Notes under the pieces: generated by a model
Told to the model about the DNA's origin: nothing
The model's input: the letters and a program-made list of their open reading frames with translations, nothing else
Database searches by the model: none
Assembly: GCA_963727905.1 (NCBI GenBank)
Contig: CAVSIC010000005.1
Location: 15,696-79,695, forward strand
Origin: an uncultured Microthrixaceae bacterium
GTDB lineage: Bacteria > Actinomycetota > Acidimicrobiia > Acidimicrobiales > VFJN01
DNA length: 64,000 bases
Reading direction: 5' to 3'
Program-made: the position numbers and the translations under genes
In this document: piece by piece, positions 1,119-33,100 of the stretch
Numbering within the stretch: the stretch's first letter is position 1
Layout: the number at the start of each line of letters is the position of its first letter

Positions 1119-1136
1119 CGGATCCGGGGGCGGCCG

Positions 1137-2300: not shown

Positions 2301-2314
2301 GCCCGAGGAGCTTG

Positions 2315-13191: not shown

Positions 13192-13782
13192 GTGGACCTC
13201 GTGACCGCGGAAGCCGACCAGACCGCCATCCGGCGGCGGGCGTCGATGCTCCCGCCCGAGGAGCGGCGGGCCGCCATCGTGCAGGCCACCTTCCCGCTCC
13301 TCCTGGCCCACGGCGAGATGGTCACCACCCGCCAGATCGCCGACGCCGCGGGGATCGCGGAGGGCACGATCTTCCGGGTCTTCGACGACAAGGACGCCGT
13401 GATCCGGGCGGTGCTCGAGGCGGTGTTCGACCCCACCCCGTTCGACGACGCCGTGCGCGCCCTCGACCCGGGGCTCAGCTTCGAGGCGGGCCTGCGCACG
13501 ATCGTGGACCTCCTGCAGCAGCGGGCCGTGGTCATCTGGCGGGTCGCCTCCAGCCTCGGCCCGCGCTTCCACGACGACACCCGCAAGAACGTCGTGGTCA
13601 GCCCGCCCATGGTGGCCTTCTTCAAGCGCCACAAGGACCGGATCCGGCTGCCGCCCACCGAGGCCGCCCAGGTCCTGCGCTCGCTCACGATCTCCCTGAC
13701 CCACCCCTCCCTCGTCGAGGAGCCCATGGCCCCGAAGCGCATCGTCGACCTGTTCCTCCACGGTGGGGGAGCGCGCGCGTGA
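13192..13782 (+). CDS. TetR-family transcriptional regulator
   Basis: 196-aa ORF. HTH AAIVQATFPLLLAHGEMVTTRQIADAAGIAEGTIFRVFDDKDAV. An alternative start at the internal Met (MLPPEERR, 13246) is possible. Confidence 0.8.
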   Translation: MDLVTAEADQTAIRRRASMLPPEERRAAIVQATFPLLLAHGEMVTTRQIADAAGIAEGTIFRVFDDKDAVIRAVLEAVFDPTPFDDAVRALDPGLSFEAGLRTIVDLLQQRAVVIWRVASSLGPRFHDDTRKNVVVSPPMVAFFKRHKDRIRLPPTEAAQVLRSLTISLTHPSLVEEPMAPKRIVDLFLHGGGARA

Positions 13783-15539: not shown

Positions 15540-17422
15540 CCGACATCGCCCAGCAGAACGAGGAGCTGCGGGAGATCCCCGCCGAGACGCGCCGGACGCC
15601 GGGCGGCTGGCGGCAGGGCGGGGTGCCCACCGAGCGATCGGAGGACTTCGGCGGCGCCGTCCGCCGCCTCGGCCAGCTGCTGCGCCCGGACTGGCCCCGC
15701 CTGGCCCTGATCGTGGTGATGGCCCTGGCCAGCACCGTCCTCAACGTGCTCGGCCCCCGCGTGCTGGGCCGGGCGACCGACGTCGTCATCGACGGCCTCC
15801 GATCGGGCCGGGGCATCGACTTCCCCGAGCTCCACCACGTCCTCTACGAGGCCATCGCCCTGTACGTCGGCGCCGCCGTCCTCGGCGTCGGGATCGCCCT
15901 CACCCTGGCCGGCGTCGTGCAGCGGCTCATGTTCGGCCTGCGCCAGCAGGCGGAGGCCAAGATCAACGCGCTCCCGCTCCGCTACATCGACCGCCAGGCC
16001 CGGGGCGATCTGCTGAGCCGCGTCACCAACGACCTCGACAACCTCGCGCAGACCCTTCAGCAGACGCTCAGCCAGATGCTGACGTCGGTCCTCCTGCTGA
16101 TCGGGGTCGCCGTGATGATGATCACGATCTCGCCGCTCCTGGCGCTCGTCGCGCTGGTCACCGTGCCGGGGGCGCTGTGGTCGATGAAGGTCATCGGTGG
16201 GCGGGCCCGCCCCAAGTTCATCGAGCAGTGGCGATCCACGGGCGAGCTGAACGCCCAGATCGAGGAGACCTTCACGGGGCACGCCATCGTGAAGGCCTTC
16301 GGTCGCCAGCAGCAGGTCGAGAGCCGCTTCAACGAGACCAACGAGGTGCTCTACCGGTCGTCGTTCGGCGCGCAGTTCATGTCGAGCCTGATGCAGCCGT
16401 CCACGATGTTCTTCGGGAACCTGCAGTACGTGATCGTCGCCGTGGTCGGCGGCCTGCGCGTGGCCACGGGCGCCATCAGCATCGGCGACGTCCAGGCGTT
16501 CATCCAGTACTCCCGGCAGTTCGCCATGCCGCTCACGCAGCTGGCCTCGATGATGAACATGTTCCAGTCGGGCATCGCCTCGCTGGAGCGGGTGATCGAG
16601 CTGCTCGACGCCGACGAGCAGACGCCCGACGGCGCCGCCCGGCTCCCCGAGCGGGTCGAGGGCCGGGTCGTGTTCGACGACGTGTGCTTCTCCTACGACC
16701 CCGATCGGGCGCTGATCGAGGGCCTGGAGCTGGTGGCGGAGCCGGGGGAGACCATCGCGATCGTCGGGCCGACCGGCGCCGGCAAGACCACCCTGGTCAA
16801 CCTGATCATGCGGTTCTACGAGCTCGACGCCGGGTTCATCACCCTCGACGGCGTCGACATCGCCAGCATCCCCCGGGCCGACCTCCGCTCCCACCTCGGC
16901 ATGGTGCTGCAGGACACCTGGCTCTTCGGCGGGACCATCCGGGACAACATCGCCTACGGCAACCCCGACGCCACCGAGGAGCAGATCCTCGAGGCCGCCA
17001 AGGCCTGCTACGTCGACCGGTTCGTCCACCACCTCCCCGACGGCTACGACACCGTGATCAACGAGGAGGGCGACAACATCAGCGCCGGTCAGAAGCAGCT
17101 CCTGACCATCGCCCGGGCCTTCCTCGCCGACCGCTCGATCCTCATCCTCGACGAGGCGACCTCCTCGGTGGACACCCGGACCGAGGTGCAGGTCCAGGTG
17201 GCCATGAACCGCCTCCGCAAGGGCCGCACGAGCTTCGTGATCGCCCACCGGCTGTCCACGATCCGCGGTGCCGACACGATCCTCGTGATGGAGCAGGGCC
17301 GCATCGTCGAGCAGGGCTCCCACGAGCACCTGCTGAGCCGCGACGGGCCCTACTACCGTCTCTACAACTCCCAGTTCGCCGGGGCCGTGGCCGAGGCCGA
17401 CCCGAACGCCCTGATGTCCTAG
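15536..17422 (+). CDS. ABC exporter, fused permease/ATPase half-transporter, subunit 2
   Basis: 628 aa from a GTG that overlaps the upstream TGA (GTGA at 15536-15539). Walker A GPTGAGKTT, signature ISAGQKQLLTIARAF, Walker B ILILDEATSSVD. Probable heterodimer partner of the preceding gene. Confidence 0.9.
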   Translation: MTDIAQQNEELREIPAETRRTPGGWRQGGVPTERSEDFGGAVRRLGQLLRPDWPRLALIVVMALASTVLNVLGPRVLGRATDVVIDGLRSGRGIDFPELHHVLYEAIALYVGAAVLGVGIALTLAGVVQRLMFGLRQQAEAKINALPLRYIDRQARGDLLSRVTNDLDNLAQTLQQTLSQMLTSVLLLIGVAVMMITISPLLALVALVTVPGALWSMKVIGGRARPKFIEQWRSTGELNAQIEETFTGHAIVKAFGRQQQVESRFNETNEVLYRSSFGAQFMSSLMQPSTMFFGNLQYVIVAVVGGLRVATGAISIGDVQAFIQYSRQFAMPLTQLASMMNMFQSGIASLERVIELLDADEQTPDGAARLPERVEGRVVFDDVCFSYDPDRALIEGLELVAEPGETIAIVGPTGAGKTTLVNLIMRFYELDAGFITLDGVDIASIPRADLRSHLGMVLQDTWLFGGTIRDNIAYGNPDATEEQILEAAKACYVDRFVHHLPDGYDTVINEEGDNISAGQKQLLTIARAFLADRSILILDEATSSVDTRTEVQVQVAMNRLRKGRTSFVIAHRLSTIRGADTILVMEQGRIVEQGSHEHLLSRDGPYYRLYNSQFAGAVAEADPNALMS

Positions 17423-17853
17423 CTGGACGGGATCGCGTAGGTCACGGTGGCGTGGGCGACCAGGTCGTCCGGGTCCGTCCCCTCGCTCCAGAGCCGCACC
17501 TCGCTGACCGACTGCCGGCGGCCGAGCCGCAGCAGCCGGGCGTGGGCTACGAGGTCGGCCGGCTGGGGCTTCTGGAGGAAGCTGATCGTGAGGCTGCTCG
17601 TCACCGCGAGGGCCACGGGCCCGATGCGGGACAGCGTCACCAGCCACGCGGCCCCGTCGGCCAGGCTCATCATCGTGGGCCCCGAGAGCGTCCCCCCGGG
17701 CCGGATCTGCCCGGCCTCGGCCGGCAGCCGCATCGTGATCCCGGCCTCGTCCACGTGCTCCACCCGATAGGCGCGCGGCGCCCCCGGAAACGCGCCCGCG
17801 AGGAACTCGTTCAGCTCCTCCACGCTCATCACCACCGGCTGCGCCTTCGGCAT
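17419..17853 (-). CDS. PaaI/hotdog-fold thioesterase
   Basis: 144-aa ORF. The pattern ...GGTLSGPTMMSLADGAAWLVTL...AVTSSLTISFLQ...LLRLGRRQSVSEVRLW is typical of PaaI-type thioesterases. Converges on the ABC gene with a 4-nt overlap. Confidence 0.75.
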   Translation of the reverse strand: MPKAQPVVMSVEELNEFLAGAFPGAPRAYRVEHVDEAGITMRLPAEAGQIRPGGTLSGPTMMSLADGAAWLVTLSRIGPVALAVTSSLTISFLQKPQPADLVAHARLLRLGRRQSVSEVRLWSEGTDPDDLVAHATVTYAIPSS

Positions 17854-18000
17854 CCGCAGGAACCTAACGGCCGCCTCTCATGTAACGGAACATCGCCCTC
17901 GCGCGAATGAACCAGTACGAGCCTCCGATCGGAGGCAGCCACGGATTGATGCGGAGGCTCGCCGATGTCGCGGTTCCGAGGGTTCTGAGTCGCAGTCCTG

Positions 18001-18567
18001 GTGCTGACGGTGACCATCGGGGGACTTGCCGTCGCCCCGGCATCGGCGCGCGTGTGGCGGACCTACTCGACAGGCTGCGAGCAGGGCACGGTCGGCAACT
18101 CGGCTGACAGCGTGAACCACATCTTCCACTACAGCTCGAACCTCTCATCCTGGATGACCACCGCAGTGACCTGGTCCCGAACCAACAACCTCGACCCGAC
18201 CGTCCTCAACACGTTCTACGCCGAGCTCGTTCAAGTCGATACCGACGTCGTGGTCTATGACCAGGACTACACCGACTGGTGCGGCTATCCCTGGAACGGG
18301 ATGCCGGGGACGCAGGGCGGCACGGAGGGCTTGACCGCTTGTGTGAGCCTGACGCCGAATCCGGCTGGGGCGTGCGAGAAGTTCGAGGTCCGCTTCGACG
18401 AGTCAGCCACGCGCACGGGGAGCACGACCATGCGACGGGTCCTCGCGTGCCATGAGCTGGGCCACACCCTCGGCCTGGAACACGCCACGGGCTGCATGGC
18501 GTTCCCCCGCAACTCATCGACCTCATACGCAACTGCTGATGTCGGCTGGATCAACAGCCACTACTGA
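18001..18567 (+). CDS. small secreted zinc metalloprotease, metzincin-type motif (snapalysin-like size)
   Basis: 188-aa ORF. Short N-terminal hydrophobic segment ending APASA. The extended zinc motif HELGHTLGLEH (HExxHxxGxxH) lies close to the C-terminus. A/T-ending codons are visibly more frequent than in neighbouring genes. Confidence 0.65.
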   Translation: MLTVTIGGLAVAPASARVWRTYSTGCEQGTVGNSADSVNHIFHYSSNLSSWMTTAVTWSRTNNLDPTVLNTFYAELVQVDTDVVVYDQDYTDWCGYPWNGMPGTQGGTEGLTACVSLTPNPAGACEKFEVRFDESATRTGSTTMRRVLACHELGHTLGLEHATGCMAFPRNSSTSYATADVGWINSHY

Positions 18568-18594
18568 CACCCGACCAGGGCCAAGGAGATGTTC

Positions 18595-19332
18595 ATGACG
18601 CACGTTCGTCGCTCACGCATGCTCTGGCTGGTGGTCACCGTCGTTGGGGCTATTGCAGTTGTCGGGTGCGGAAGCGGTGGTGCCTCGGTCGAGAGCGCAC
18701 GCACCTATGCCGTGGAGACCGTTCGAGCGAGAGACGCCCTGGCGCAGCGCTCCGACGTGTACCGCCATCTCGACGAGCTCCTCCCGAACGTCTCGTTCCG
18801 TGCTCCGTCCGGCCGTGAGATCCGTGCCGTGCGCGCCGCGGTCGTTGGCCGGATCGTTGACACGGCTGAGGGAGCCGGGTACGTCGACGGAGAGACCAGG
18901 TCGAGGCTGGTGCCGTTCGACGCTCCTGGCGCCGACTGGAGGTCCGTCAAGCTCAAGATCGACGTGGACGAGGTCCTCGGTGGAGATCCTTTGGAAATCG
19001 ATGACTCGATCTGGGTGGGCTTCTCGATCGGTACGAGGACCGACGCAACAACGTTCCGAAAGGGCATGCGGAACCTCGGAACAGTGGTGATGTTCCTCGA
19101 TCCTCCGGGCTTCTTTCGGGACGACCGGACGGCGTACATCGTGCACGAGGGAGGGGCTCTCACCGGCCGCGTGGACTCGACTGGGGTGATCACCTTCCCG
19201 ATGCGGGAGGAACAGCCGGGGTTCATGGGGTCGATCCGAACGCTGGCCGACCTTCGCGCCGCAGCGTCGGCGCCACGGCGGACGATCGAGGTCGATGCGG
19301 AGCAGGCGTACCTGTTCGGTCCGGAGGCCTGA
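18595..19332 (+). CDS. lipoprotein of unknown function
   Basis: ATG 18595 lies 6 nt after AAGGAG (18583-18588); the track start at 18589 abuts the SD. The signal peptide MTHVRRSRMLWLVVTVVGAIAVVGC contains the lipobox VVGC. No family recognised. Confidence 0.65.
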   Translation: MTHVRRSRMLWLVVTVVGAIAVVGCGSGGASVESARTYAVETVRARDALAQRSDVYRHLDELLPNVSFRAPSGREIRAVRAAVVGRIVDTAEGAGYVDGETRSRLVPFDAPGADWRSVKLKIDVDEVLGGDPLEIDDSIWVGFSIGTRTDATTFRKGMRNLGTVVMFLDPPGFFRDDRTAYIVHEGGALTGRVDSTGVITFPMREEQPGFMGSIRTLADLRAAASAPRRTIEVDAEQAYLFGPEA

Positions 19333-19340
19333 TCCGGGTG

Positions 19341-19369
19341 TGACGACCTGGGACGGTGCCGGGTAGGGT
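19341..19369 (+). promoter_or_regulatory. candidate sigmaA-type promoter for tRNA-Glu: TGACGA - 17 nt - TAGGGT
   Basis: TGACGA at 19341-19346 and TAGGGT at 19364-19369. The tRNA 5' end is 11 nt further on. Pattern match only. Confidence 0.3.
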
Positions 19370-19380: not shown

Positions 19381-19453
19381 GCCCCCATCGTCTAGTGGCC
19401 TAGGACACCACCCTCTCAAGGTGGCGGCACGGGTTCGAATCCCGTTGGGGGTG
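19381..19453 (+). tRNA. tRNA-Glu (anticodon CUC)
   Basis: 73 nt folded by hand: acceptor GCCCCCA/TGGGGGT (G1-U72 wobble), D-arm GTCTAGTGGCCTAGGAC, anticodon stem CCACC/GGTGG with loop CTCTCAA (anticodon CTC), T-arm ACGGG-TTCGAAT-CCCGT, discriminator G. No encoded CCA. Closely parallels the E. coli tRNA-Glu layout. Confidence 0.9.
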
Positions 19454-19475
19454 CTCAGCCTGCAGCTGACAGCAC
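19451..19475. terminator. stem-loop immediately after the tRNA (9 bp with a 2-nt bulge, 5-nt loop)
   Basis: GTGCTCAGC-CTGCA-GCTGA(CA)GCAC paired by hand. No U-tract. Confidence 0.3.
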
Positions 19476-19527: not shown

Positions 19528-19938
19528 TCAGAGCGGTTGGATGTTGACCGGCGCGTCGCCGACGAGCAGGGCGACGCCCTCGGGATCGCCGGTGAGCACG
19601 GTGACGTCGTCGCCGGGGAAGCCCGTGAGCGCCGCACCCAGGGCGGCGTCGATCGGCGAGGCACCGGACCGCCGGCGCACGTCGGCGGCGCGGTCGGCGC
19701 CGGCCCGGTCGAGCACGACATCGCGCAGGGCCAAGCGATCGATGGGACCGGCGACGGAGGTGGTGCGGTCCCAACCGACCGCCACGCGCACGCTCACCGG
19801 CACGACGGTGCGGCGGTCCTTGTTCCCGCGCCGGGCGGGGCGGTTGGCCTCGTAGAACGCCAGCACCTCGCGGTGGTGGGCGTGGCCCGGGTCGCTGAGG
19901 GCGACGATGGCCTCCGGACCGAGGACCAGGACCCTCAC
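19528..19938 (-). CDS. PIN-like domain protein (VapC-like toxin candidate) lacking the usual N-terminal Asp
   Basis: 136 aa from GTG 19936-19938. VLVLGPEAIVAL...VVPVSVRVAVGW...IDAALGAAL...DVTVLTGDPEGVALL parallels the PIN pattern VLDxxALxAL...VPxxVxxEVxR...VDAxVxAxA...VVLTSDPDDLxxL. The first acidic residue position is Gly. Confidence 0.5.
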   Translation of the reverse strand: MRVLVLGPEAIVALSDPGHAHHREVLAFYEANRPARRGNKDRRTVVPVSVRVAVGWDRTTSVAGPIDRLALRDVVLDRAGADRAADVRRRSGASPIDAALGAALTGFPGDDVTVLTGDPEGVALLVGDAPVNIQPL

Positions 19939-19948
19939 GCGACGCTCC

Positions 19949-20527
19949 TCACGAGCTGCGAGCCGCCAGGGCGCCCTCGGCCCAGGCCAGGAGCGTGTCG
20001 ACGTCGCCGTCGGGCCCGAGAGCGGCGGACGCGGCTTGGACCAGGTCGGGGTGGTCGGCGACGGGCCGGCCGTCGATCCGGGCGGCGGCGACCGCGATCT
20101 CCCACATCTCGGGCTGGGTGTCGGGGTGGGCGTCGTAGTGCTGGTCGAGGGCGGCCTGCTCGGCGATCCCGGCCACGAGGTCGCCCAGGGCGGTGGCCAG
20201 GCTGCCCTCCACCAGGGCGGTGAACGAGGGCGACCAGCCGTGGGCCACCGCGACCTCGGCGGCCTCCCGCAGCGAGACGTTGAGGCGCAGGGAGGTCGGC
20301 TTGTTCCGGCGGTCGGTGACGCTGGCGCCCAGGAGCTCGGCGATCCCGGTGGCCGCCGTGACGGCCTCCTCGTCGATCTGGATCGACTGCTGCTGGAGGG
20401 TGTGGTCGAACGCCTCCGTGGTGGCTGCCCAGCTGGCGGCGGCCTCGTCGGCGGGGCTCGCAGGGGCCCCGTCAGGGCTCTCCTGAGCTGCTTCTGAGCC
20501 CGGCTCTCCGGGGGTCTGGGTGGCCAC
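19949..20527 (-). CDS. antitoxin-like protein (ribbon-helix-helix-like segment) upstream of the PIN-like gene
   Basis: 192 aa from GTG 20525-20527. RNKPTSLRLNVSLREAAEVAVAHG looks RHH/CopG-like. Its stop is 10 nt before the PIN-like start. The 37 codons upstream in the track ORF (to 20638) are rich in A/T-ending codons (aaa, gaa, agg, tca, gga, ttt, gta, aca), so I treat them as non-coding. Confidence 0.5.
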   Translation of the reverse strand: MATQTPGEPGSEAAQESPDGAPASPADEAAASWAATTEAFDHTLQQQSIQIDEEAVTAATGIAELLGASVTDRRNKPTSLRLNVSLREAAEVAVAHGWSPSFTALVEGSLATALGDLVAGIAEQAALDQHYDAHPDTQPEMWEIAVAAARIDGRPVADHPDLVQAASAALGPDGDVDTLLAWAEGALAARSS

Positions 20528-20531
20528 GATC

Positions 20532-20570
20532 GGGAGCGTACCGCCCGTTGTATGGGCGCGTACTGCTCCC
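20532..20570. promoter_or_regulatory. 39-nt imperfect inverted repeat (15 bp in three segments, 7-nt loop); candidate operator or 5'-UTR structure of the antitoxin-toxin pair
   Basis: GGGAGC-GTAC-CGCCC gttgtat GGGCG(c)GTAC(t)GCTCCC paired by hand. It starts 5 nt upstream of the GTG at 20527. Confidence 0.4.
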
Positions 20571-20674
20571 TGTACCGCAAAAGCGCGTCGGATCCTTCCT
20601 GAGGGGTGCCTGTGGGAGTAGGGTTCCGGCAGTTTCACGCCGAAACACCGCCGATCCTGGAGTCAACGACCAAA

Positions 20675-20782
20675 ATGGGCAACACCCCCTCCGCTCCGAA
20701 CCGCCGCCTCGTCCGGAGCCTGCTCCTGACGCTCTCCGGTGGTGTGGCGCTCAGCTTCGCCAGCCAGGCGACCGCGCACGCG
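20675..20782 (+). other. Sec-type signal peptide of the giant protein
   Basis: Basic n-region (NRRLVR), hydrophobic core (SLLLTLSGGVALSF), and an AHA-Q cleavage-type site. Confidence 0.7.
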
Positions 20783-20785
20783 CAA

Positions 20786-23700
20786 GACGCCGGCACGGCC
20801 TCTGATGGGTCCGGGAGCACCGGGAGCGGTGACGCCACGGCCACCGGCAACATCGCCAACAGCGATCACCAGCAGGGCAACGACGGCGCCGTCGTCAGCT
20901 CGCAGACCGGCGGGATCAACAACGCAGGCCTCGGCGTGGCCGACACCGGCCGCAACGTCGCCACCGGCAACTCCTCCAGCAACACCAGCACCGCCAACCA
21001 GACCGCGGTCGGCGAGCTGCTGCTCAGCGCCAACTCCGGCTCGGCCGGCAACTCCTCGGACGGCTCGGCGGCCGTTCGCACGGGCAACGCCACCGCGGTC
21101 GGCAACCAGTCCGACAGCCGGCTCTCGCAGTCCGGCGGTCTCACGAGCGGCGTGCTCGTGCTCCTGCAGGACGGCTCGATCAGCAACATCGGCATCGGGT
21201 CGGCCAACACCGGCGGCAACACCGCCACCGGCAACGACTCCACCAACACCTCGGGCCTGGTGCAGAACGCGCTCAACCCCAACGGCCTGGCCAGCAACTC
21301 CGGCGCGGCCACCACCGCGTCCGCGGGCACCGCCGTGATCAGCACGGGCAAGGCCGAGGCCATCGGCAACCGCTCCTCGAGCAACGTGCAGCAGGTCGCG
21401 GGCGCCGGCGACGGCGACCCGGCCGGCGGCCTCGTGATCCTCACCCAGAGCGGCGCGGTCGTGAACGCCGGCGTCGGCGTGTCCAACACCGGCGAGAACA
21501 CCGCCATCGGCAACGAGTCGATGAACTCGGCCACCACCAACCAGAACGGCGCCATCAACTCCGGCGACGCGGTCCCGGACGCCCTCGACGGCATGGGCGG
21601 CATGGCGAGCCTGAACAGCCCGGCCGACACCGCGCAGGTGCCGGGCATGGATGGGGCGGTCGGGGGCATGGGCGCCGGCATCGGCGGCGCCGGAGGCACG
21701 GGTGGCGCCGGTGGCTCCGGTGACGGGGTGGCGGCTGGCGGCGGCATGGCGGGCGGGCCGGTCGTCGACAACGCTGGTGGCACCGGCGGCGCCGGCGGCA
21801 CGGGGAGCGCAGGCGGCATGGGTGGCACGGGTGCCGCAGGTGGCGCGGGCGGCGACGGCGGCATGGCAACGGGTGGTCCCGCCGCTGCGATGGGCGGCGC
21901 GATGGGTGCCACCGCGGGCGGCGCCAGCGGCGACGCCCTAGGCGCGACCGCGGGCGCCGGCGGCCTCGCGATGTCTGGCGTGAGCAACAACGTGCTCCTC
22001 CTCGGCGGCTCGCTCGTATCGAACTCCGGCGACGCCACCACCTCCTCCGACGGGTCGGCCTCCGTCGCCACCGGCGACGCCAGCTCCACGGGCAACGCGT
22101 CCGGCACCGAGCTGAGTCAGACCGAGTCGGCCGACGTCACCGGCACGCACGTACAGACGCAGTCCGCCATCGTGGTCAACGCCGGTCTCGCCACCGCCGA
22201 CACCGGCAACAACTTCTCCACCGGCAACACCTCGACGAACACGGCCACGCACCTCCAGGAGACCAACCTCAACGCCGGCACGGCCGAGGCCCCCGCCACG
22301 GGCGGCGCCGGCGGCGATGCCACGTCCACCGGCGGCGTCGGTGGCGTCGCCACCGGCGGCACGGGTGGTGCGTCCCCCGACGGCGGCACCGGACAGGGCG
22401 GTGCGGGCGGGGCCGGCGGCGCCGGCGGGGCCGGCACCGGTTCGGCGGCGCGAGCTCGGCCATGGGCGGCACCGGCGGCGCCGGCGGGATGGGTGGTCTG
22501 GGCACCGGCGGCGAGAGCGGTACCGGCGGCGCCGGCGGCGCCGCCACCGCGGGCATGGGCGGCAACGCCACGTCCACCGGCGGCATGGGTGGCGCGGCGA
22601 CGGCCGACGCCACCGCGAACGTCTTGGCGGGCAACGCCCTGGTGTCGAACGCCGGCGGTTCCAACGCGGCGTCCGACGGCACCTCGTCGGTCACCACCGG
22701 CGACGCGTCGGCCACGGGCAACGCGTCGCTCACCACCGTCCACCAGGACGCGGCGGCCGAGCGCAGCGGCGCGGGCCCGATCCTCACCCCGCAGACGGCC
22801 CTCGTGGTCAACGCCGGGCTGGGCACCGCCTCCACGGGTGGGAACAACGCCACCGGCAACGACTCTGGGAACTTCAGCACCACCGACCAGACCACCACGC
22901 TCAACGCCGGCACGGCGTCCGCGACCGCCACCGGCGGCGAGGGTGGAGCGGGTACCGCCACCGGCGGCGAGGGTGGTGCGGCCACCGGCGGCACGGGCGG
23001 CATCGGCGGCATGGGCGGCACGGGCACGGGCGGATCGGGCGGCGCCGGCGCCGACGGCGGTGCGGCTGCCGCCACCGGCGGGTCGGGCATGGCCACGGGT
23101 GGCGCGGGTGGCGCCGGCGGCGACGGCGGCATGGGCACGGGCGGCGGCATCGGCGGCGTGGGCGGCACGGGCGGTTCGGCCACGGGCGGCACCGGCGGGG
23201 CGGCCACGGCGACCGGCGGAGCCGGTGGTGACGCCACGGCCACCGCGACGGCCAACCTCCTCGCCGGCAACCTCGTGGTCGCGGGCCAGGGCCACGCCGA
23301 CACCTCCAGCGACGGCTCGGCCTCCATCGGCACCGGCTCGGCGGATGCCACCGGCAACCGGTCCCTCACCGCGGTGGACCAGGACACGGACACCGGCCAG
23401 GCGGGCGCGGGGGCGACCATCGCTCCCCAGACCGCGTTCGTGGCCAACGTGGGCGTCGGGAGTGCCAGCTCCGGTGGCAATGCGGCCGTCGGCAACCTCT
23501 CCTTCAACGACGCCACCACCACGCAGACCACCACCACCAACGCCGGATCGGCCGTTTCCGTGGCCGACGGCGGCGATGGCGGCGACGCCACGGCCACCGG
23601 CGGCGAGGGCGGCGACGCCATCGGCGGCACGGGCGGGGCCGGTGGCGCCGGCGGGGTCGGCGTCGGCGGGATCGGCGGGGCCGGTGGCGCCGGTGGGATC

Positions 23701-26700
23701 GCCGACGCTTCCGGCGCCATGGCCGACGCCACGGGTGGTGCGGGCGGCGCCGGTGGCGCCGGCGGCGCAGGCCTGGGTGGCGACGGCACGGCCGGCGGCA
23801 CCGGCGGCATGGCCACTGGCACGGCGGGCAGCACGGCCACGGCCAACGGCAGCGTGGGCGCGGCGGCCACCGCCACCGCCAGCGGCTCGCTGATCGCCGG
23901 CGACCTGTTCACCACGAGCAACGGCTCCTCCGACATCACCTCCGACGGCTCGGCCTCCGTCGCCACCGGCGGAGCCAGCGCGACCGGCAACCAGGGCAGC
24001 ACCGACATCTCGCAGGAGAGCGGCACGCAGCTCCCCGGCGCCGGCGTGGTGCTCGCCCCGCAGACCGCGCTCGTGCTCAACGCCGGGTTCGGCACCGCTT
24101 CGTCGGGCGGCAACGGCGCGACGGGCAACGCCTCGATCACCGACTCCACCGTCACGCAGACCACCACCACCAACGCCGGCTCGTCCGAGGTGACCGCCAC
24201 GGTGGCGAGGGTGGCAGCGGCACGGCCACCGGGGTGGCGGGCGGCGATGCCACCGGCGGCGGCGGTGGCGACGGGAGCGCCGGTGGCGCTGGCCTTGGTG
24301 GTGCAGGCGGCATGGGTGGCGCCGGCGGTGCCGCGGACAGCGACAGCAACGGCACGATCGGCGGCACGTCGACCACCGTCGGCGGGGCGGGCGGCGCGGG
24401 CGGCGGCGGCGGCGGCGCCACCGGCGGCTCGTCGGGCAGCATGGGTGCGGCGGGCGGCTCGGCCATCGGCGGCCTCGCCGCGGTGTCGTCGGCGCGATCG
24501 GCCAACCCCCTCGGCGGGCTCCTCCCGGCCCTGCCGGCCGTGGCCACGGGCACGTCGGGCCTGATCGCCGGCGACATCGTCACGAACGGCTCGGCCTCGA
24601 GCTCGGTCTCGAGCGACGGCAGTGCCGACATCGCCACCGGGTCGGCCTCGGCCACCGGCAACACGAGCTCGGTGGAGGTCGATCAGACCAGCGCCACCGC
24701 GCTCGACGGCCTCGGCGTCGCGATCACCCCGCAGAGCGCAGTGGTCGCGGAGATCGGGGTCGCCTCGGCCACCAGCGGCAGCAACACCGCGACCGGCAAC
24801 GCATCGAACACGTCGAGCGTCGTCGACCAGACCACCACGACCAACGCCGGTGCCGAACACCGTCGAGGCCATCTCCGGCGACTCCGGTGACGCGACGTCG
24901 AACGGCAGCTCCGGCGGTGCCTCGTTCGGCGGCGATGCCGGCGACAGCGGCGCCGCGGGCTGCCGCCACTGGCGGCGACGGCGGCGTCGGGCGCGGCGGG
25001 CGGCGACGCCGCCTCCGACGTCGTCGGCGCGGGGGACTCCGGCTGTCGCGATGGGCGGCGCCGGTGGGGCGGGCGGCATGCGGTGCGGCGGCCACGGGCG
25101 CCGGCGCGGCGCCGGAACCGGTGGCGCGGGCGGGTCCGGCGGCCTCGCCAACCTTCGTCGGCGCCTCGGCGGCGCGGGCAGCGTGCTCGGGCGTGATCTC
25201 CACCGGGCTGCCCGGCGGGGCCGCGGTGGCGACCGGCATCGGCGGCGCCGCCACCGGCGACGTCATCAACAACGGCTCGGCGTCGGCCTCCAACACCTCC
25301 GACGGGTCGGCCAGCGTCCGCACCGGCAATGCCTCGGCCAGCGGCAACGTCGGCCACGTCGACATCGACCAGAACGGCGAGCCAAGGCGTCTCCGGCCTC
25401 GGGTTCGTGCTCGCGTCCCAGGATGCCGCCGTGATCGACCTCGGGATCGCCACGGCCAACACCGGCGACAACGACGCCTTCGGGAACACCACCACGGGCA
25501 CCGACACCGTCGACCAGACCACCACCACGAGCGTCGGCTCCATCGACACCTCGGCCACGGGTGGCGACGGCGGCGCGGCCACTGCCACAGGGGCGCTGGG
25601 TGGCACCTCCACCGGCGGCGCCGGCGGCAACGGCGGCACCGGCGGCGCCGTCACCGGCGGTATGGCGGCCCCGGGCGGCGCCGGTGGCATGGCCACCGAT
25701 CACCCCCGGCACAGGTGCCGCCACCGCCACCGGCGGGGCCGGCGGCACGGGTGGCGCGGGCGGTGTGCCTGGCTTCGGCGGCTGCCGGCGGCGCCGGCGG
25801 CTCCGGGCAGCTCCGCCATCGCAGGCGGCGGCCTGCTGCGTTGCCTCCCGATCGCGGTCGGCGGCCTCGGCGGCCCGCTGGCCACGGCCGACGGCCTGTC
25901 GGTCGGCCTCAGCGGCGACGTGGTGAGCTCGTCCTCGGCCGAGGCGTCGCGTTCCTCCGACGGCGATGCCTCGATCTCGACTGGCGACGCCGACGCGACC
26001 GGGTCGCGGTCCTCCACCAGCATCGACCAGGACGGGCCGGCCCAGGCCGTGCTCGGCGGCGTGATCGCGCCGCAGAGCGCCGTCGTGGTCAACGCCGGCG
26101 TCGCGCAGGCCGACACGGGCACGAACCAGGCGACCGGCAACGAGTCGGCCAGCATGGCCACCACCACCCAGGTCACCACGTCGTCCACCGGCTCCACTGC
26201 CCTCGAGGCGACGTCCGGCGACGGAGGAGCTGCGTCCGTCGACGCCGGTGACGGTGGCGACGCCACCGGTGCCAGGGTGGGGCCGGTGGGAACGGCGGCG
26301 GGTCCGCCGGTGGACCCGGCGGTCTCGCCGGCCCGGTGGCGACGCGACGCAGACGGGCGCCGGCGCCTCTACGGGCGGCATGGGCACCTCGGGCGGCACG
26401 GGTGGCACTGGCGCCATGGGTGGCGTCGGTGGCATGGGCGGCGGCGGAGGGCTCGTCCCCACCTGGCGGCGCGCCCGGCTCGACGTCCCCGGTGGTCGGC
26501 GGCGTCGGCGGCATCGCGGCCGCCCTCGGCGGCAGCGTCGGCGCCTCGGGCGATCTCGTAGCCACCGCCTCGGGGGCGGCCGGCTCGTCCTCCGACGGCT
26601 CGGCCTCGGTCGACACGGGCGATGCGTCCGCCACGGGCAACGACTCGGTCACCACGGTGGGCCAGGTCGGCGATCAGACGGCGACCGGCGGCCTCGTGAT

Positions 26701-28140
26701 CACCCCGCAGACGGCCATCGTGGCCAACGTGGGCCTGGGCACCGCGGAGACCGGCGACAACACCGCCAGCGGCAACACGTCCGACAACACCGCCACGAAG
26801 ACCCAGACCTCCACGGCCACCACCGGCGACGTCACCGGCGGCACGGCCCTGGGCGGCGCCGGCGGCGCCGCCACGATCCCTGCGGGCAGCGCGGCCGATG
26901 GCGGCGACGCCACCGGTACCGACGGGACAGTGGGGATGAACGGCACTGACGGCGATACCGGGGGCCCGGGCGCCAACGGCACATTCGGTGCGAGCGCAGG
27001 GCCCGGCGTCACGGGCGCCGACGGTGCCGCGGATGGGGTCCAAGGAGCGCCCGGTGCCAACGCCGGCATGGCAGGCACCGATGGCGCCGGCGCAACGCCC
27101 GCCTTTGGCATGAATGGCACGGCGGTCATGGCTCCACTCGGCGGGGCCGGCGGAGCCGGCGTGTCCGGCCCGCTCGTCGGCTTCGGCGTGAGCGGCGACC
27201 TGATCAGCTCCACGGCGGGTGATGCCACCAACACGTCCGACGGGTCGGCCAAGGTCGGCACCGGCAATGCCACTGCCTCCGGCAACGAGTCGACGACGCA
27301 CGTCCACCAGAACGTCGACGCCGACAGCGGGCTCGGGCTGATCCTCACGCCGCAGACGGCGCTCGTGATCAACGGCGGGCTCGGCCTCGCCGACACCGGC
27401 GACAACACCGCCATCGGCAACGAGTCGCTCAACAACGCCACGCTGACGCAGACCGACACGGTCACCGTCGACGGCGACATCCTGCTCGGCAACGCCATCG
27501 CCTCCTCGAGCGGCGTGGCGGAGAACGAGTCGGATGGCGACGCCTGCGCCTGCAGCGGCGATGCCACGGCGTCCGGGAACATCTCGGACACCACCATCGC
27601 CCAGGACATGGACGTCTCCGCCAACGGCGGCTCCGTGGTCCTCGTTCCGACCACCGGCGTGGTGGCCAACCTCGGCGCTGGTGTGGCCCTGACCGGGCTC
27701 AACACCGCCACCGGGAACTCGTCGGACAACGGGGCGACCACCACCCAGACGTCCACCATCGACGTCGACCTCCTCGGTCTCGGGAACCAGGTCGCCAGCA
27801 GCTCCGGTGATGCCGGCAACCAGTCCGACGGCACCGCCGAGGTCGGCTCGGGCAACGCTCGTGCCATCGGCAACGACTCCGACACGGTCATGACCCAGGG
27901 CGCCGTGATCGACGGTGACGGCTCGCCGGTGATCTCCTCGATCCTCGGCACCACCGCCAACGCCGGCCTCGGCATCGCCGACACGGGCGACAACCACGGC
28001 ACCGGCAACGACTCGTTCAACCGGGCCGTCCTCGAGCAGACCGCGACCGGCGACGGCATCGTGAGCAACCAGGGTTCCGCTCGCAACGCCTCCGACGGCA
28101 CCGCCCGCATCGGCGACCCCGACTGCGACGACGAGGTCAC
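20786..28140 (+). repeat. array of about 14 tandem coding modules (about 265 nt core each) with variable Gly-rich spacers
   Basis: SDGSA-type cores counted by eye: SSDGSAAVRTGNATAVGN, SAGTAVISTGKAEAIGN, SSDGSASVATGDASSTGN, ASDGTSSVTTGDASATGN, SSDGSASIGTGSADATGN, TSDGSASVATGGASATGN, SSDGSADIATGSASATGN, TSDGSASVRTGNASASGN, SSDGDASISTGDADATGS, SSDGSASVDTGDASATGN, TSDGSAKVGTGNATASGN, ESDGDACACSGDATASGN, QSDGTAEVGSGNARAIGN, plus degenerate first and last copies. One internal 30-nt tandem duplication lies at 22924-22983 (27/30 identical). Confidence 0.8.
26915..27119 (+). repeat. collagen-like imperfect G-X-Y stretch inside the giant protein
   Basis: GTD GTV GMN GTD GDT GGP GAN GTF GAS is 9 consecutive GXY triplets. 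Shorter runs follow (GVT GAD GAA; GVQ GAP GAN; GMA GTD GAG), each offset by single residues. Confidence 0.6.
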
Positions 28141-28174
28141 CACCGCCAAGCCCCCGACGTCCACCACCCCGGGC

Positions 28175-28279
28175 CTGCCCCGGACCGGTGGACCGCTGGA
28201 GGTCGAGGCGGCCATCGGCCTCATGCTCCTGCTGGCGGGCTTCGGCTTCCGCCGGCAGGCCAAGAACGCCTTCCGGGCG
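28175..28279 (+). other. LPXTG cell-wall sorting signal (LPRTG + hydrophobic helix + basic tail)
   Basis: LPRTG GPLEVEAAIGLMLLLAGFGF RRQAKNAFRA, then stop at 28280-28282. This is the classic tripartite sortase-substrate signal. Confidence 0.8.
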
Positions 28280-28324
28280 TAGCGCATCCGCACCAACCCC
28301 TTCGGGGCCTGACGGCCTGCCAAC

Positions 28325-29074
28325 ATGGGCGCCGTCATGGCGCCGAAGGTGTACATCCACGAGCTGATCGAGATCACCGGGCACCACCGCGCCCGGTACA
28401 TGCACCACATGACCGCGAACTGGTGCCCGATCGGGCGCGAGGAGCGGGACATGCTCTGCCTCGGCGTGTGGGCCACCCTCGGCTCCACCGGCCCGTGGCC
28501 GCAGGTCGTGAACATGTGGGAGCTCGACGGCTGGGACGCGCTGGCCGCCAACTTCGCCCACGAGACCGGCGGGGGTCAGGACCAGGACCCCTCGCTGGCC
28601 GAGTGGTGGAAGGAAGCGGCCGCCCTCCGCAACGGCGGGGTCGACCGGATCGTGGTGCCGACCCACTGGACCCGCACCGTCGAGCAGCTCTGTGCCGACG
28701 GGGTGCGCGGCGTCGCCTACGCCCACGAGCTCGTCACCCTCGCCCCCGGCACGGGCCCGGCCTTCCTCGAGGCCCTCGAGCGGGACGGCCTCGAGGCGGT
28801 GAGCGGCCTGGGCGTCGAGCCCGTCGGGGCCTACAGCGTGGCCATGGCCGACGACTCCGAGGTCGTGGTGCTGTGGGCGATGCCCGACTGGCCCACCTGG
28901 GTCGCCTACGAGGAGGCCTGGTTGCGGGGCGGGGCGCTGGGGCCGTGGCGGGACGACCTGCTCGGCCTCGGGGCCCGTTGGCGCCGGCAGCTGCTCGTCG
29001 ACTCGCCGCTGAACCCGCTCCGCACCGGCCGGCAGCCCCAGGTCGAGGACCGTCGCCCGCTCGACGAGCTGTGA
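28325..29074 (+). CDS. NIPSNAP-like protein (two tandem alpha+beta halves)
   Basis: 249-aa ORF. VYIHELIEITGHH...VVNMWELDGWDALAANF and a second half AYAHELVTLAPGTG...VVLWAMPDWPTWVAYEEAW resemble a duplicated NIPSNAP fold. Call from pattern only. Confidence 0.45.
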   Translation: MGAVMAPKVYIHELIEITGHHRARYMHHMTANWCPIGREERDMLCLGVWATLGSTGPWPQVVNMWELDGWDALAANFAHETGGGQDQDPSLAEWWKEAAALRNGGVDRIVVPTHWTRTVEQLCADGVRGVAYAHELVTLAPGTGPAFLEALERDGLEAVSGLGVEPVGAYSVAMADDSEVVVLWAMPDWPTWVAYEEAWLRGGALGPWRDDLLGLGARWRRQLLVDSPLNPLRTGRQPQVEDRRPLDEL

Positions 29075-29094
29075 CCGCGGCGCTGTGACCGCGG
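29069..29094 (+). repeat. 14-nt tandem duplication CTGTGACCGCGGCG / CTGTGACCGCGG at a gene junction
   Basis: Copy 1 (29069-29082) contains the TGA of the upstream gene. Copy 2 (from 29083) contains the GTG start (29085) of the next gene. Confidence 0.7.
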
Positions 29095-30179
29095 ATCGCG
29101 TCTACGGCGCACCCCTGGAGGGCGTCGACGTGGTGGTGGCGCCCACCGACCTCGCCTCGCTCCTGGCCGAGGCCCACTGGCGGATCCGCGGCCGCGAGCC
29201 CGGCATCCACCTGGGCGACGCGGTGGTCGTCGGCCGCGACGGCACCCCGCTCGAGGACCGCCCGCCGGCCGACCGATGGCGGGCGCCGGACGACGAGGTG
29301 GTCGACGCCCTGGCCCGGGCCGAGCGGCCGGTGGTCCTGGCCGGCCCCGGAGTGGTGCTCGACGGCGCCGTGCCCGGCCTCCACGCCCTCGCCGCCGGCG
29401 GCAGCCTGGGCGTCCTCAACACGTGGGGGGCCAAGGGGGCCTTCGACTGGCGCAGCCGCCACCACCTCGCCACCGCCGGCCTCCAGGCGCGCGACTTCGA
29501 GCTCGGCGGCCTGGGCGATGCCGACCTCATCGTGGCCACCGGGATCGACCCCAGGGAGGCCCTGACCGACTGGCGCCTCGCCCCGGTCGTGGAGGTCCAC
29601 CCGTGGGCGTTGGGGCCGCTCTCGGAGCGCGGCGGGCGGGCTCCGCAGCCCATCGTGCGGCCGCCGCTCTTCACCCGTCTGGCCGCCGTCACCCAGGCCG
29701 GGTGGGCGGCCACGCAGGCCCCTCTGCCGCCCACCAAGGTCACGCAGCACTACGGGCGGCGGCTGGGTGGTGGCGGGCTCGTGGCGGCCGACCCGGGCCT
29801 GGCCGGCTACTGGGTGGCCCGCACGCTCGGCACCACCGGTGTGGGCGGTGTGCTCGTGAGCGCCGACCGCGATGCCACCGGGTCGGGGCTGGCCGCCGCC
29901 ATCGTGGCCCGCCTGCTCGATCCCGGTCGGGCCGTCCTCGCCGTGAGCGAGGAGGTCACCGACGTGCACCGGGCCCTGCTCGACCTGGCGGCGTCGCTCG
30001 GCGTGACCGTCGCCCTCGAGGTGTGGGCCCCCGAGGGCCCGGCGATGGCGCCGGAGGACCACGAGGCCCGCTTGGACGACCTGGTGCGCCATGGCGGCGT
30101 GGGGGAGATCGGCACCGACCCGGCGCAGCTCGACGAGATGCTGCAGGTCGCCGGCCCCGTCGTCGCGTGGACCGCCTGA
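29085..30179 (+). CDS. thiamine-diphosphate-enzyme-like protein lacking the N-terminal PYR domain and the GDG Mg/ThDP motif (probable pseudoenzyme)
   Basis: 364-aa ORF. RPVVLAGPGVVLDGAVPGLHALAAGGSLGVLNTWGAKGAF...ADLIVATGID looks like the central domain of the acetolactate-synthase family. GSGLAAAIVARLLDPGRAVLAVSEE occupies the PP-domain position where GDG(S/A) is expected. Confidence 0.55.
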   Translation: MTADRVYGAPLEGVDVVVAPTDLASLLAEAHWRIRGREPGIHLGDAVVVGRDGTPLEDRPPADRWRAPDDEVVDALARAERPVVLAGPGVVLDGAVPGLHALAAGGSLGVLNTWGAKGAFDWRSRHHLATAGLQARDFELGGLGDADLIVATGIDPREALTDWRLAPVVEVHPWALGPLSERGGRAPQPIVRPPLFTRLAAVTQAGWAATQAPLPPTKVTQHYGRRLGGGGLVAADPGLAGYWVARTLGTTGVGGVLVSADRDATGSGLAAAIVARLLDPGRAVLAVSEEVTDVHRALLDLAASLGVTVALEVWAPEGPAMAPEDHEARLDDLVRHGGVGEIGTDPAQLDEMLQVAGPVVAWTA

Positions 30180-33100
30180 TGAGCCGGCCGGCACCGGTCG
30201 ACCGGACGACACCGCAGCCCAAGCCCCCCGGGTCCGGCGGATGGATCCGCCGGCTGTCGCCGTTCGTCCTCGCGCACCGGCGCGACGTCGTGCTGGCCTT
30301 CGGCATGTCGGTGGCCGGTCAGGCCGTCGGGGCCACCACCCCGGTGATCTCCAAGATCGTCATCGACGACGTGCTGCCCGACTCGGGTCGCTCGCTCGCC
30401 CCGTGGCTCACGCTGCTCGTCGTGTGCGGCCTGTTCGGGTTCGGCGCCGCCTACGTCCGCCGCTTCTTCGGAGGCCGGGTCGCGCTCGACGTGCAGTTCG
30501 ACCTGCGCAACGCGGTGTTCGAGCGCCTCCAGCGCCTCGACTTCGGCAGCCACGACCAGCTGCAGACCGGCCAGCTCGTGTCGCGCGCCTCCACCGACAT
30601 CGGTCTGCTCCAGGCCCTGCTGTCGTTCCTGCCGATCATGCTCGGCAACCTCGTCCTCTTCGTGGTGTCGCTGGGGGTGATGCTCTGGCTGTCGCCGCCG
30701 CTCACGCTCGTGGCCCTCGTGGCGGTGCCGCTGCTCATGGCCGTCGCCCTGCGCCTGCGCGGCACGGTGTTCCCCGCCTCGTGGGACGCGCAGCAGCGAG
30801 CCGGCGAGGTGGCCGGCGTCGTCGACGAGGCCGTCACCGGGGTGCGGGTGGTGAAGGGCTTCGGCCAGGAGGACCGCGAGCTGCACCACCTGGCCGACGC
30901 CGGGGCCGACCTGTTCCGGGCGCGCGTCCGCCTCATCCAGCTGCAGGCCCGCTACACGCCGACGCTGTCGTCGATCCCGGTGCTGGCTCAGGTGGCCGTG
31001 CTCGGGTTCGGCGGATGGCTGGCCATCGAGGGGAACATCACCCTCGGCGCGTTCCTGGCGTTCTCCTCGTACCTGGTGCAGCTGGTGGCGCCCGTGCGGA
31101 TGTTCGCCACCCTCATCGCGGTGGGCCAGCAGGCGCGAGCCGGGGCCGAGCGGCTCCTCGACGTGCTCGACGCCAACCCGATGGTGGCCGAGCGGCCCGA
31201 CGCACCGGACTTGCCGCCCGTCACCGGGGCGGTGCGCTTCGACCGCGTCCGCTTCGGCTACACCCGCTCCGCGCCGGTGCTCGACGGGTTCGACCTCGAG
31301 GTCGGCGCCGGGGAGACCGTGGCCCTCGTGGGCGGCAGCGGCTCGGGGAAGTCCACGGTGGCGCTGCTGCTGCCCCGGTTCTACGACGTGGCCGAGGGCG
31401 CCATCACCATCGACGGCATCGACGTGCGCGACGTCACCTTCGACTCGCTGCGGGGCCAGGTGGGCGTCGTGTTCGAGGAGTCGTTCCTCTTCTCCGACAC
31501 GGTGTGGTCGAACATCGCCTACGGCCGGCCCGACGCGACCGACGAGGAGGTGCAGGCCGCCGCCCGCGTCGCGGAGGCCGAGGAGTTCATCGACGCCCTG
31601 CCCGACGGCTACCAGACGGTCGTGGGGGAGCGGGGCCTCACCCTGTCCGGCGGCCAGCGCCAGCGCATCGCCCTGGCCCGGGCGATCATCACCGACCCCC
31701 GGATCCTGATCCTCGACGACGCCACGTCGTCGATCGACAGCACGACCGAGGAGGAGATCCACGCCACGCTGCGTCACGTGATGCAGGGGCGCACCACGCT
31801 CCTCGTGGCCCACCGGCGCTCGACGCTCCGCCTGGCCGACCGCATCGTGCTGGTCGACCGGGGCCGCGTGGTCGACCAGGGCTCGCACGACGAGCTCGTG
31901 GCCCGCTCGCAGCTCTACCGGGACCTGTTGTCGGGCCCGGAGGACGGCTCGATCGACATCCCCGTCCCGTCGGCGCCGGTGGCCGTGTCCGACCGAGACC
32001 GGCTGTGGCCCTACGAGGCCGTCGACCCGGACGGCCCGAAGGCCAAGGCCACCGCCGACGGCGTGGCCCGCATCGGGCCGCCCGGGGGCGGGGGAGCCAT
32101 CGGCATGGCCCTGGCCCCCACCCCCGAGCTGCTCGCCGCGCTGGCGAAGCTGCCCCCGGCCGACAGCGACCCTGACGTCGACGTCGCCGCCGAGGCCGCC
32201 GCCCCCGCCGATCGCTTCCGGCTCCGGTCGTTCGTGCAGCCCTACCGGGCGGCCCTCGGCCTCGGCTTCGCGCTCGTGGTCCTCGACACGATCCTCACGC
32301 TCCTCGGCCCGTTCTTCGTCCGCCAGGGCCTCGACCACGGCGTGCGCAACGGCGACCTCGGCGCGCTCCGGCTCGCCACCGGGCTCTTCCTCCTCGCCGC
32401 GCTGGGCGACTGGCTCCTCACGTTCCTCTACACCCTGGTCACCGGCCGCACCGCGGAGCGCCTGCTCTACGCGCTGCGCATCCGGATCTTCAGCCACCTC
32501 CAGCGCCTCGCCCTCGACTTCTACGACCGCGAGCTCGCCGGCCGCGTGATGACCCGCATGACCACCGACGTCGAGTCGCTCTCGCAGCTGTTGCAGCAGG
32601 GGCTCATCAACGCCGTGGTCAACGTGTTCACCTGCATCGGCGTGTTCGTGTTCCTGGTGATCCTGTCGCCACCGCTGGCCCTGGCCGCGGCCGCGGTGCT
32701 CCCCCCGCTGGTGATCGCCACCTGGTGGTACCGCCGGCTCTCGAGCCGGGCCTACCAGCGGGCCCGCGAGTCCATCGCCACCGTGAACGCCAACCTGCAG
32801 GAGAGCCTCTCCGGGGTGCGGGTGGCCCAGGCCTACTCCCGCGAGGACAAGAACATCGGCGGCTTCAAGTCGCTCAACAGCCAGTACCTGGCCGACCGCA
32901 CCGTGGCCCAGCGCCTCATCGCGTTCTACTTCCCGTTCGTGCTCCTGTTGGCCGACCTCGCCGCCGCCATCGTGCTCGGCCGAGGCGTGGGGCTGGTGCA
33001 GGACGGCACGATCGAGCCGGGCGTGCTCATCGCGTTCCTCCTCTACCTCAACCTGTTCTTCGCGCCGATCCAGCAGCTCTCGGCGGTGTTCGACATCTGG

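Follow-up and report, generated by a model that had tools for sequence, protein, structure and literature searches.

A probable giant sortase-anchored surface protein built from an undescribed repeat module in the Acidimicrobiales

We analyzed a 64-kb stretch of DNA (the window) from an uncultured environmental member of the Acidimicrobiales (Actinomycetota), and within it a repeat-built coding region on the plus strand, at 20675–28282. This region is probably a single gene for a very large, acidic, aromatic-poor, sortase-anchored fibrillar surface protein of the adhesin or stalk type, with a reading frame broken by what are more likely consensus errors than mutations. Giant sortase-anchored surface proteins are already well known as a kind; what is new is the repeat family. 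The case adds a Gly-rich domain of fixed length and hypervariability at the level of strains, and its weakness is the broken frame in this assembly.

Mechanical open reading frame (ORF) calling over 20606–28282 returned six overlapping plus-strand ORFs, and all six pieces bear the same module. In a three-frame translation, text rich in Gly, Ala, Thr, Ser and Asn hops between frames, and the remaining frames read as Arg/Pro/His-rich nonsense. The start codon is the ATG at 20675, with GGAG 12 nt upstream. Read from the sequence, an n/h/c layout is visible at the N-terminus (MGNTPSAPNRRLVRSLLLTLSGGVALSFASQATAHA/QD): RRLVR forms the basic n-region, a hydrophobic core follows, and the c-region ends in AHA/QD. 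At the other end, LPRTG is followed by a 20-residue hydrophobic segment (GPLEVEAAIGLMLLLAGFGF), the tail RRQAKNAFRA and the stop codon TAG at 28280–28282, a tripartite signal that is near-invariant across 10 aligned homologs. No other signal peptide or LPXTG sorting signal occurs in the whole window. The start, the Sec-type signal, the LPRTG/hydrophobic/RRQAK signal and the stop at 28282 are those named in an earlier reading of the letters alone (the sequence-only reading), which had also taken everything between them as one reading unit. The single signal peptide, the single LPXTG and relatives that read in one frame favor that unit, which nevertheless hinges on at least 13 frame changes that are not proven errors.

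The G+C content is 70–79% throughout the window, with its maximum (77–79%) at 22–27 kb, and a promoter and terminator scan of 20300–28500 found none. The mature protein comprises about 2,467 amino acids (aa), with a mass of ~216 kDa and an isoelectric point of ~4.05; it contains no Trp and no Tyr, and 22 Lys and Arg residues vs. 184 Asp and Glu. This acidic, aromatic-poor composition fits a long, hydrophilic, negatively charged fiber. The features of the gene are listed below, where HMM stands for hidden Markov model and L001 and L002 are relatives in other genomes.

20675–28282, plus strand: whole gene, reconstructed; ~2,530 codons after repair of at least 13 frame changes; one frame in L001 (1773 aa) and L002 (1497 aa)
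20675–20782, plus strand: Sec-type signal peptide, predicted cleavage AHA/QD, read from the sequence; n/h/c layout kept in homologs P0002, P0004, P0017 and P0044
20759–21565, plus strand: N-terminal block, modules 1–3 abutting (20759–21019, 21014–21286, 21278–21565); HMM matches; 82, 76 and 61% identical to L001 modules 1–3
21566–22003, plus strand: first spacer, irregular, Gly/Ala/Met-rich, 146 aa
22004–26827, plus strand: central array, modules 4–11 alternating with GGX-triplet domains; HMM matches
22004–22282, 22630–22914, 23266–23550 and 23899–24180, plus strand: modules 4–7; HMM matches
24570–24851, 25256–25538, 25914–26192 and 26549–26827, plus strand: modules 8–11; HMM matches
22283–22629, 22915–23265, 23551–23898, 24181–24569, 24852–25255, 25539–25913 and 26193–26548, plus strand: GGX-triplet domains, 116–134 aa, which align with the L001 and L002 spacers
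22439–26461, plus strand: zone in which every detected frame change lies (13, of which 5 are read as a missing base and 8 as an extra base)
26828–27193, plus strand: last spacer, 122 aa, with Gly-X-Y-like triplets (GTDGTVGMNGTDGDTGGPGANGTFGAS) in place of GGX; similar stretches in P0009 and P0095
27194–28123, plus strand: C-terminal block, modules 12–14 abutting, and half-module cap (28049–28123); 80, 89 and 96% identical to L001
28124–28282, plus strand: acidic Pro/Thr-rich stalk, LPRTG (28175–28189), hydrophobic segment, RRQAK tail and stop

Modules were located with an iterative profile seeded with one window module. The final profile, made from 54 modules of the window and 13 relatives, finds 14 full modules of 94 residues each and a C-terminal half-module cap in the reconstructed protein. 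Modules 1–3 abut, as do 12–15 (15 being the half copy), and nine Gly-rich stretches part modules 3 to 12, so that the HMM coordinates agree with the abutting outer and spaced central modules of the sequence-only reading and with its count of about 14 two-part copies. The consensus of the 54-module alignment, xxxxASNxGxAxNxSDGxAxIxTGxAxAxGNxSxTxxxQ-(about 8)-GxGxxxxxQxAxVxNxGxAxANTGxNxAxGNxSxNxAxxxQ, includes six invariant Gly/Asn columns and likewise matches the halves and the shared core proposed there. Because the profile is self-similar at an offset of 46–48 residues (z = 3.5 and 2.8), the description of the module in two halves stands. The shorter period of ~22 residues that had been proposed is weak (offset 23, z = 1.7).

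Three real Cys residues are encoded, a CxC in module 13 (27545 and 27551) and one in the cap (28124), and two more Cys fall in frame-damaged spacers; Cys had been thought confined to one module, which holds for the CxC and not for the cap residue. All three are invariant in 12 aligned sequences. In the third module from the end, the CxC occupies one strand face, 207–220 residues ahead of LPXTG in 11 homologs, and the cap Cys follows it by ~190 residues. This pattern suggests a disulfide or metal site that may lock the wall-proximal base. In more distant relatives the CxC is shifted into the TGxAxAxGN motif, and a Cys-rich PPLPxC stalk is present.

The central spacers, described earlier as poly-Gly, are by their sequence a second domain type made of GGX triplets rather than plain poly-Gly linkers. 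Gly-rich stretches measure 116–134 aa in the window (the first one 146), 119–126 aa in L001 and 121–127 aa in L002, and the GGX domains are alignable across the three genomes (MAFFT). They share a layout: after an ATATGGDGGDA-type start come two GGX runs with a short non-Gly island between them, and the end is of the form ..ADA..L.A. Non-Gly positions recur with a period of 3 in all three genomes (z = 8.6–9.8 vs. shuffles), and most copies contain 17–25 GGX triplets. Because domain length is kept at only ~64% DNA identity, a folded unit is more plausible than a floppy linker. Among 181 family proteins examined, domains this long occur only in the window type (the window, L001, L002 and the fragment P0095); P0046 and P0021 carry 36-aa Gly-rich inserts at the same position between modules. 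The last spacer has few GGX triplets and contains nine uninterrupted Gly-X-Y triplets (GTDGTVGMNGTDGDTGGPGANGTFGAS). The Gly-X-Y-like stretches of P0009 and P0095 occupy the same site, ahead of three C-terminal modules. This spacer gave no match to Pfam Collagen, and one Gly-rich domain searched against PDB sequences returned no match.

PGRS domains have been proposed to fold as a polyglycine-II sandwich, with 5–6 helices of 3–4 triplets each, a model that AlphaFold supports (PMC9436101). By analogy, the ~20–25 triplets of a GGX domain would fit a small sandwich of this kind, which is a lead, not a result. The resemblance to the PGRS domains of PE_PGRS proteins (PMC9436101) extends to Gly/Ala-rich GGX tracts with strong period 3, high polymorphism, likely surface exposure and very G+C-rich actinobacterial DNA. 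Unlike PE_PGRS proteins, the product has no PE domain (no Pfam match, the N-terminus being a Sec signal peptide) and no ESX-5 context, and its tracts are of fixed length (~120 aa), alternate with another module and belong to a protein with an LPXTG anchor. A bolder, tentative idea, which we regard as unlikely, is that of an undescribed Gram-positive fiber type: a new Asn/Gly/Thr/Ser-rich beta module would alternate regularly with compact ~120-aa GGX domains folding as polyglycine-II sandwiches, PGRS-like outside mycobacteria, in a sortase-anchored protein with a central cassette that diversifies quickly between strains.

Neither repeat could be assigned to a described family. Pfam and NCBIfam scans of the three intact window segments (20672–22438, 22462–24195 and 26450–28279; 24196–26449 was not scanned) gave no match at E ≤ 1, and Pfam found no domain of any kind in nine relatives. 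In the PDB, neither the C-terminal 363 aa nor the module profile drew a significant sequence match (best 8BDW, E = 0.52), in keeping with the failure of the sequence-only reading to name a family. YadA_head/Hep_Hag, RTX, collagen, chaplin, PE and known stalk domains were rejected for want of a Pfam match, as far as profiles can see. CsgA was compared because the Q..GxGN.A...Q pattern of the module recalls it (the query was verified against PDB 8ENQ); curli membership was likewise rejected, with no Curlin_rpt match and an hhalign probability of 0.2% for the module profile vs. CsgA.

Proposed earlier as a check, a search of protein databases with the module HMM bore out the suggestion of a new candidate surface-fiber family without a described domain. 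Run exhaustively over 1.84 billion cluster representatives, HMMER returned 441 with E ≤ 1e-3, of which 199 have E ≤ 1e-30, and the latter number shows that the module family is not a product of chance. (A homolog search with a one-module profile gave short fragments only; a scan of genome contigs with a single protein found no relatives, and an alignment-based scan recovered the loci.) Judged by these profile matches, the family is real but sparse and was undescribed before, and it extends beyond this locus. Members elsewhere are intact ORFs of 1100–1970 aa that start with a signal peptide, hold 11–19 modules and carry LPXTG or LAXTG; the highest copy number is 19 modules in 1,905 aa. The shared plan begins with a signal peptide and abutting modules, continues with either a Cys-containing C-terminal cap or a PPLP-type stalk, and closes with LPXTG/LAXTG/LPVTG, a membrane segment and a basic tail. 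LPXTG-like ends are present in 96 of the 181 sequences examined, and many of the others are truncated. On record they are named “hypothetical protein” or carry a generic LPXTG label, such as “LPXTG-motif cell wall-anchored protein” for the distant homologs P0015 and P0016 (Joint Genome Institute). All 10 loci from GTDB species genomes are in metagenome-assembled genomes (MAGs) of Acidimicrobiales, Microthrixaceae or unclassified Actinomycetota. One locus (L006, 1–12805) holds three consecutive intact tandem paralogs of 1294, 1493 and 1696 aa, each with LPXTG, and in a Microthrixaceae MAG (L004, 7988–15215; L011, 8988–13699) an intact 1138-aa copy adjoins one broken into many frames.

The nearest relative of the window, L001 (ENA ERZ25039476, contig_25410), is 91–93% identical in the DNA of the flanks, and its neighboring genes match as well (a NIPSNAP-like gene, a thiamine pyrophosphate (TPP) enzyme and a fused ATP-binding cassette (ABC) transporter). 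The acetoacetate-CoA ligase of the window, a housekeeping-type gene, is 96% identical to the copy on the 195,822-bp contig of L001 and 78% to an Acidimicrobiales MAG protein. Together with the lineages of the family loci, this places the window in an uncultured member of the Acidimicrobiales. The giant gene of L001 runs for 1773 residues in one frame and then has two frame changes, giving ~2,309 residues and 13 modules. L002, a short-read MAG contig on which the 5′ end is cut off, has an intact ORF of 1497 aa with five module-plus-GGX units, three abutting modules, cap and LPRTG. These two uninterrupted readings establish that the architecture of modules and GGX domains is real. As an assembly, L001 is the more error-prone in ordinary genes: where its positions 1–3067 align with window 14831–17865, many extra single bases split its ABC transporter genes into calls of 423 and 343 aa. 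Even so, no more than two frame changes occur in its giant gene. The window counterpart is one stop-free ORF of 1219 aa (13763–17422) with Pfam ABC_membrane and ABC_tran at residues 648–1134.

Between the two strains, the ends of the protein are conserved and its center is not. Modules 12–14 with the cap are the most conserved part (80, 89 and 96% identity for the three modules), followed by the N-terminal three (82, 76 and 61%), whereas central modules reach 45–57% and have no one-to-one orthology. The total number of modules differs as well (14 vs. 13). Central DNA (window 22004–26827 vs. L001 5660–9850) is ~64% identical, compared to ~92% for the flanks. The central cassette is thus hypervariable between strains.

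How the product would leave the cell, be anchored, take fibrous shape and function we infer from this anatomy, and the steps of export and anchoring are modeled on general knowledge of sortase substrates. The Sec system would export the protein, and a sortase would cut LPRTG between Thr and Gly and join the Thr to a peptidoglycan precursor, so that linkage is through the C-terminus. The short acidic Pro/Thr-rich stretch would then span the wall, with the conserved three-module base (modules 12–14 and cap, with the three Cys) adjoining it. The hypervariable central array, eight units each of a 94-aa module and a ~120-aa GGX domain, would form an extended stalk, and the conserved N-terminal block of three modules a distal tip. 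Acidimicrobiia are known to carry LPXTG proteins, 13 of them in Ilumatobacter coccineum (PMC3910706).

The closest known parallel is with sortase-anchored fibrillar adhesins and stalk proteins of Gram-positive bacteria (PMC8286594; PMC9210967), in which a signal peptide and a C-terminal LPXTG, hydrophobic and basic signal likewise frame a long run of small all-beta repeats in tandem (stalk-type repeats number 14 here, and relatives have as many as 19). They also have conserved ends and a middle that varies in sequence and copy number among close relatives. Unlike them, the protein has a repeat outside the described stalk families, no recognizable adhesive tip domain and an alternation with Gly-triplet domains; its repeats are old (~65% DNA identity) rather than recently amplified, and the host is neither a Firmicute nor a pathogen. 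YadA heads and Hep_Hag share small-residue alternation of the GxxSxAxG type, and the likeness noted by the sequence-only reading survives in composition only: there is no Pfam match at E ≤ 1, the YadA-head repeat has 14 residues vs. 46–48 and 94 here, and YadA-type proteins are outer-membrane autotransporters of diderm bacteria, whereas this would be a sortase substrate of a monoderm lineage.

Several results weigh against an anchored fibrillar adhesin whose frame breaks are errors. The search for a sortase, which the sequence-only reading had advised for the complete genome, covered the 64-kb window and 10 kb on either side of 11 related loci and found no TLxTC-type ORF, and neither the Pfam Gram_pos_anchor model nor the NCBIfam/TIGR LPXTG-anchor models matched at E ≤ 1. 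No adhesive or enzymatic domain was found in the scanned window segments or in nine relatives, so “adhesin” is used by analogy with fibrillar adhesins. Structure models of the modules are of low confidence (predicted local distance difference test, pLDDT, 47–50). Finally, the window flanks are clean, DNA identity among the repeats of the gene is only ~65% and no exact repeat reaches 30 nt, and frame-change sites show no enrichment for long homopolymers, all of which fits real mutations as well as errors.

A frame-aware Viterbi reading in which steps of +1 and −1 are permitted places 13 frame changes, near nt 22439, 24199, 24855, 24955, 25041, 25078, 25379, 25698, 25765, 25811, 26271, 26330 and 26461, a lower bound since the spacer at 24852–25255 probably hides a few more. 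The gene is in a single frame over 20675–22438 and over 26462–28282. Twelve of the 13 changes fall in Gly-rich domains or at module edges, the other (near 25379) in the linker within module 9. Taken at face value they describe a genuine pseudogene, a once-functional giant gene in which at least 13 frameshifting indels in the Gly-rich center restrict the product to an N-terminal fragment of 590 aa or less, its tail out of frame and its anchor lost. We find this doubtful, though it is the strongest of the alternatives. The remainder of the window appears accurately assembled (flanking genes are frame-intact, multidomain neighbors are whole, and coding gaps vs. L001 over 9 kb downstream are all multiples of 3), and the DNA is too little repetitive to confuse an assembler. 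The mixture of insertions and deletions at sites outside long homopolymers also agrees with decay, as do the fragmented paralogs beside an intact copy in L004, and loss of surface-protein genes is common.

On the other side, at least 13 indels have accumulated without any large deletion. Lengths of modules and spacers are kept in the broken zone, and profile scores are undiminished, with central modules at 77–84 bits vs. the family profile compared to 67–93 bits in intact relatives. Every break falls within the 77–79% G+C, strain-hypervariable stretch, and the L001 and L002 orthologs are essentially intact. We infer that consensus errors are more likely than real mutations, because the frame-broken stretch is both the most G+C-rich and the most strain-variable part of the gene. 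A mixed-strain consensus would fail at the center, since that is where close strains differ most (~64% vs. 92% identity in the flanks; 14 vs. 13 modules). The L004 and L011 paralogs, from one MAG, are fragmented likewise, and the name contig_5150 suggests the output of a long-read assembler. Two specific kinds of error found no support: assembly collapse of repeats was rejected, since the units share ~65% identity and lack exact repeats as long as 30 nt, and errors of the long-read homopolymer type are not indicated by the sites.

A different question is what the modules do. AlphaFold2 models of the C-terminal 363 aa with 12 aligned sequences (mean pLDDT 46.7) and of a two-module query with 67 two-module sequences (mean pLDDT 49.5) are both all-beta, with strands of 13–17 residues, and the conserved SDG..TG.A.A.GN motifs fall in their least confident parts. 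The beta-solenoid or beta-roll that the sequence-only reading had offered as speculation found no confirmation in these low-confidence models or in a Foldseek comparison. The modules could be functional-amyloid-like or otherwise self-associating beta units with a role like that of curli, Fap or chaplins, in which case the anchored protein, instead of binding a specific ligand, would nucleate or organize the matrix of a biofilm or sheath. We judge this improbable. The composition (Gln/Asn/Gly/Ser/Thr-rich, strictly alternating, each half-module ending in Gln) and the all-beta, long-stranded prediction speak for it, and long chaplins are sortase-anchored amyloid proteins in Actinomycetota. Foldseek vs. 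the PDB with the better model gave no match at E ≤ 0.001; its top matches were the FapC amyloid (E = 0.68 and 2.0), which are meaningless because model confidence is too low. The resemblance to CsgA and Fap lies in short Q/N/G/S/A-rich strand-turn-strand repeats that end in Gln, and unlike the small, secreted curli-type subunits the protein is very large and has a covalent-anchor signal. Against an amyloid role stand the lack of a Curlin_rpt or chaplin match in Pfam, the 0.2% hhalign probability and the lack of a profile relationship to CsgA that it reflects, and a neighborhood in which no small secreted partner subunit was seen.

That the pieces are several separate genes is close to refuted: six overlapping ORFs and the tandem paralogs with their own anchors in L006 might suggest it, but the signal peptide is on the first piece only and the LPXTG on the last only, the overlaps are out of frame with each piece ending in Arg/Pro-rich nonsense translation, and in relatives the reading continues in a single frame.

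Soil, water and activated sludge harbor Acidimicrobiia in abundance, most of them uncultured, and their cell surfaces are almost unstudied. A wall-anchored giant family lacking any described domain would give initial access to the way in which they contact their surroundings. The module merits a Pfam entry, and the Gly-triplet domain perhaps a second one. If GGX domains fold like mycobacterial PGRS, which are still without an experimental structure, they would offer a simpler, repeated, non-pathogen test system for the polyglycine-II sandwich model. The locus also serves as a warning that extremely G+C-rich, strain-variable surface genes can pose as a series of false pseudogenes even where the assembly is otherwise good. 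Gene callers risk mis-annotation on the opposite strand too: minus-strand ORFs of 413, 392, 960, 785 and 625 aa cross the gene (window 20866–28726), which are Pro/Ala/Val-rich mirror translations of Gly/Ala/Thr codons and lack the family module.

Upstream of the gene lies a tRNA-Glu (19381–19454). Between the two are adjacent minus-strand ORFs of 139 and 229 aa (19528–20638; 136 and 190 aa in L001), which match no Pfam or NCBIfam family, toxins and antitoxins included, so that the toxin–antitoxin-like pair suggested earlier found no support. Conserved neighbors, another check proposed for the locus, were sought by a crude six-frame blastp; no neighborhood shared with distant family loci was found. 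Directly upstream of the tRNA, 17866–19358 is ~1.5 kb of extra DNA vs. the otherwise collinear L001, and looks like a small strain-specific insertion beside a tRNA. The extra segment contains an ORF of 188 aa (18001–18567) with a Met-zincin HExxHxxGxxH-type motif and weak, sub-cut-off Pfam matches to DUF4953 and Peptidase_M10, and one of 247 aa (18589–19332) with a lipoprotein-like N-terminus. Downstream of the giant gene, the 1557-aa ORF at 29276–33949 extends upstream, out of frame, across the TPP-enzyme gene (29085–30179); going by L001 (1256 aa), the real product is the fused ABC transporter, with two ABC_membrane plus ABC_tran halves and a start near 30180.

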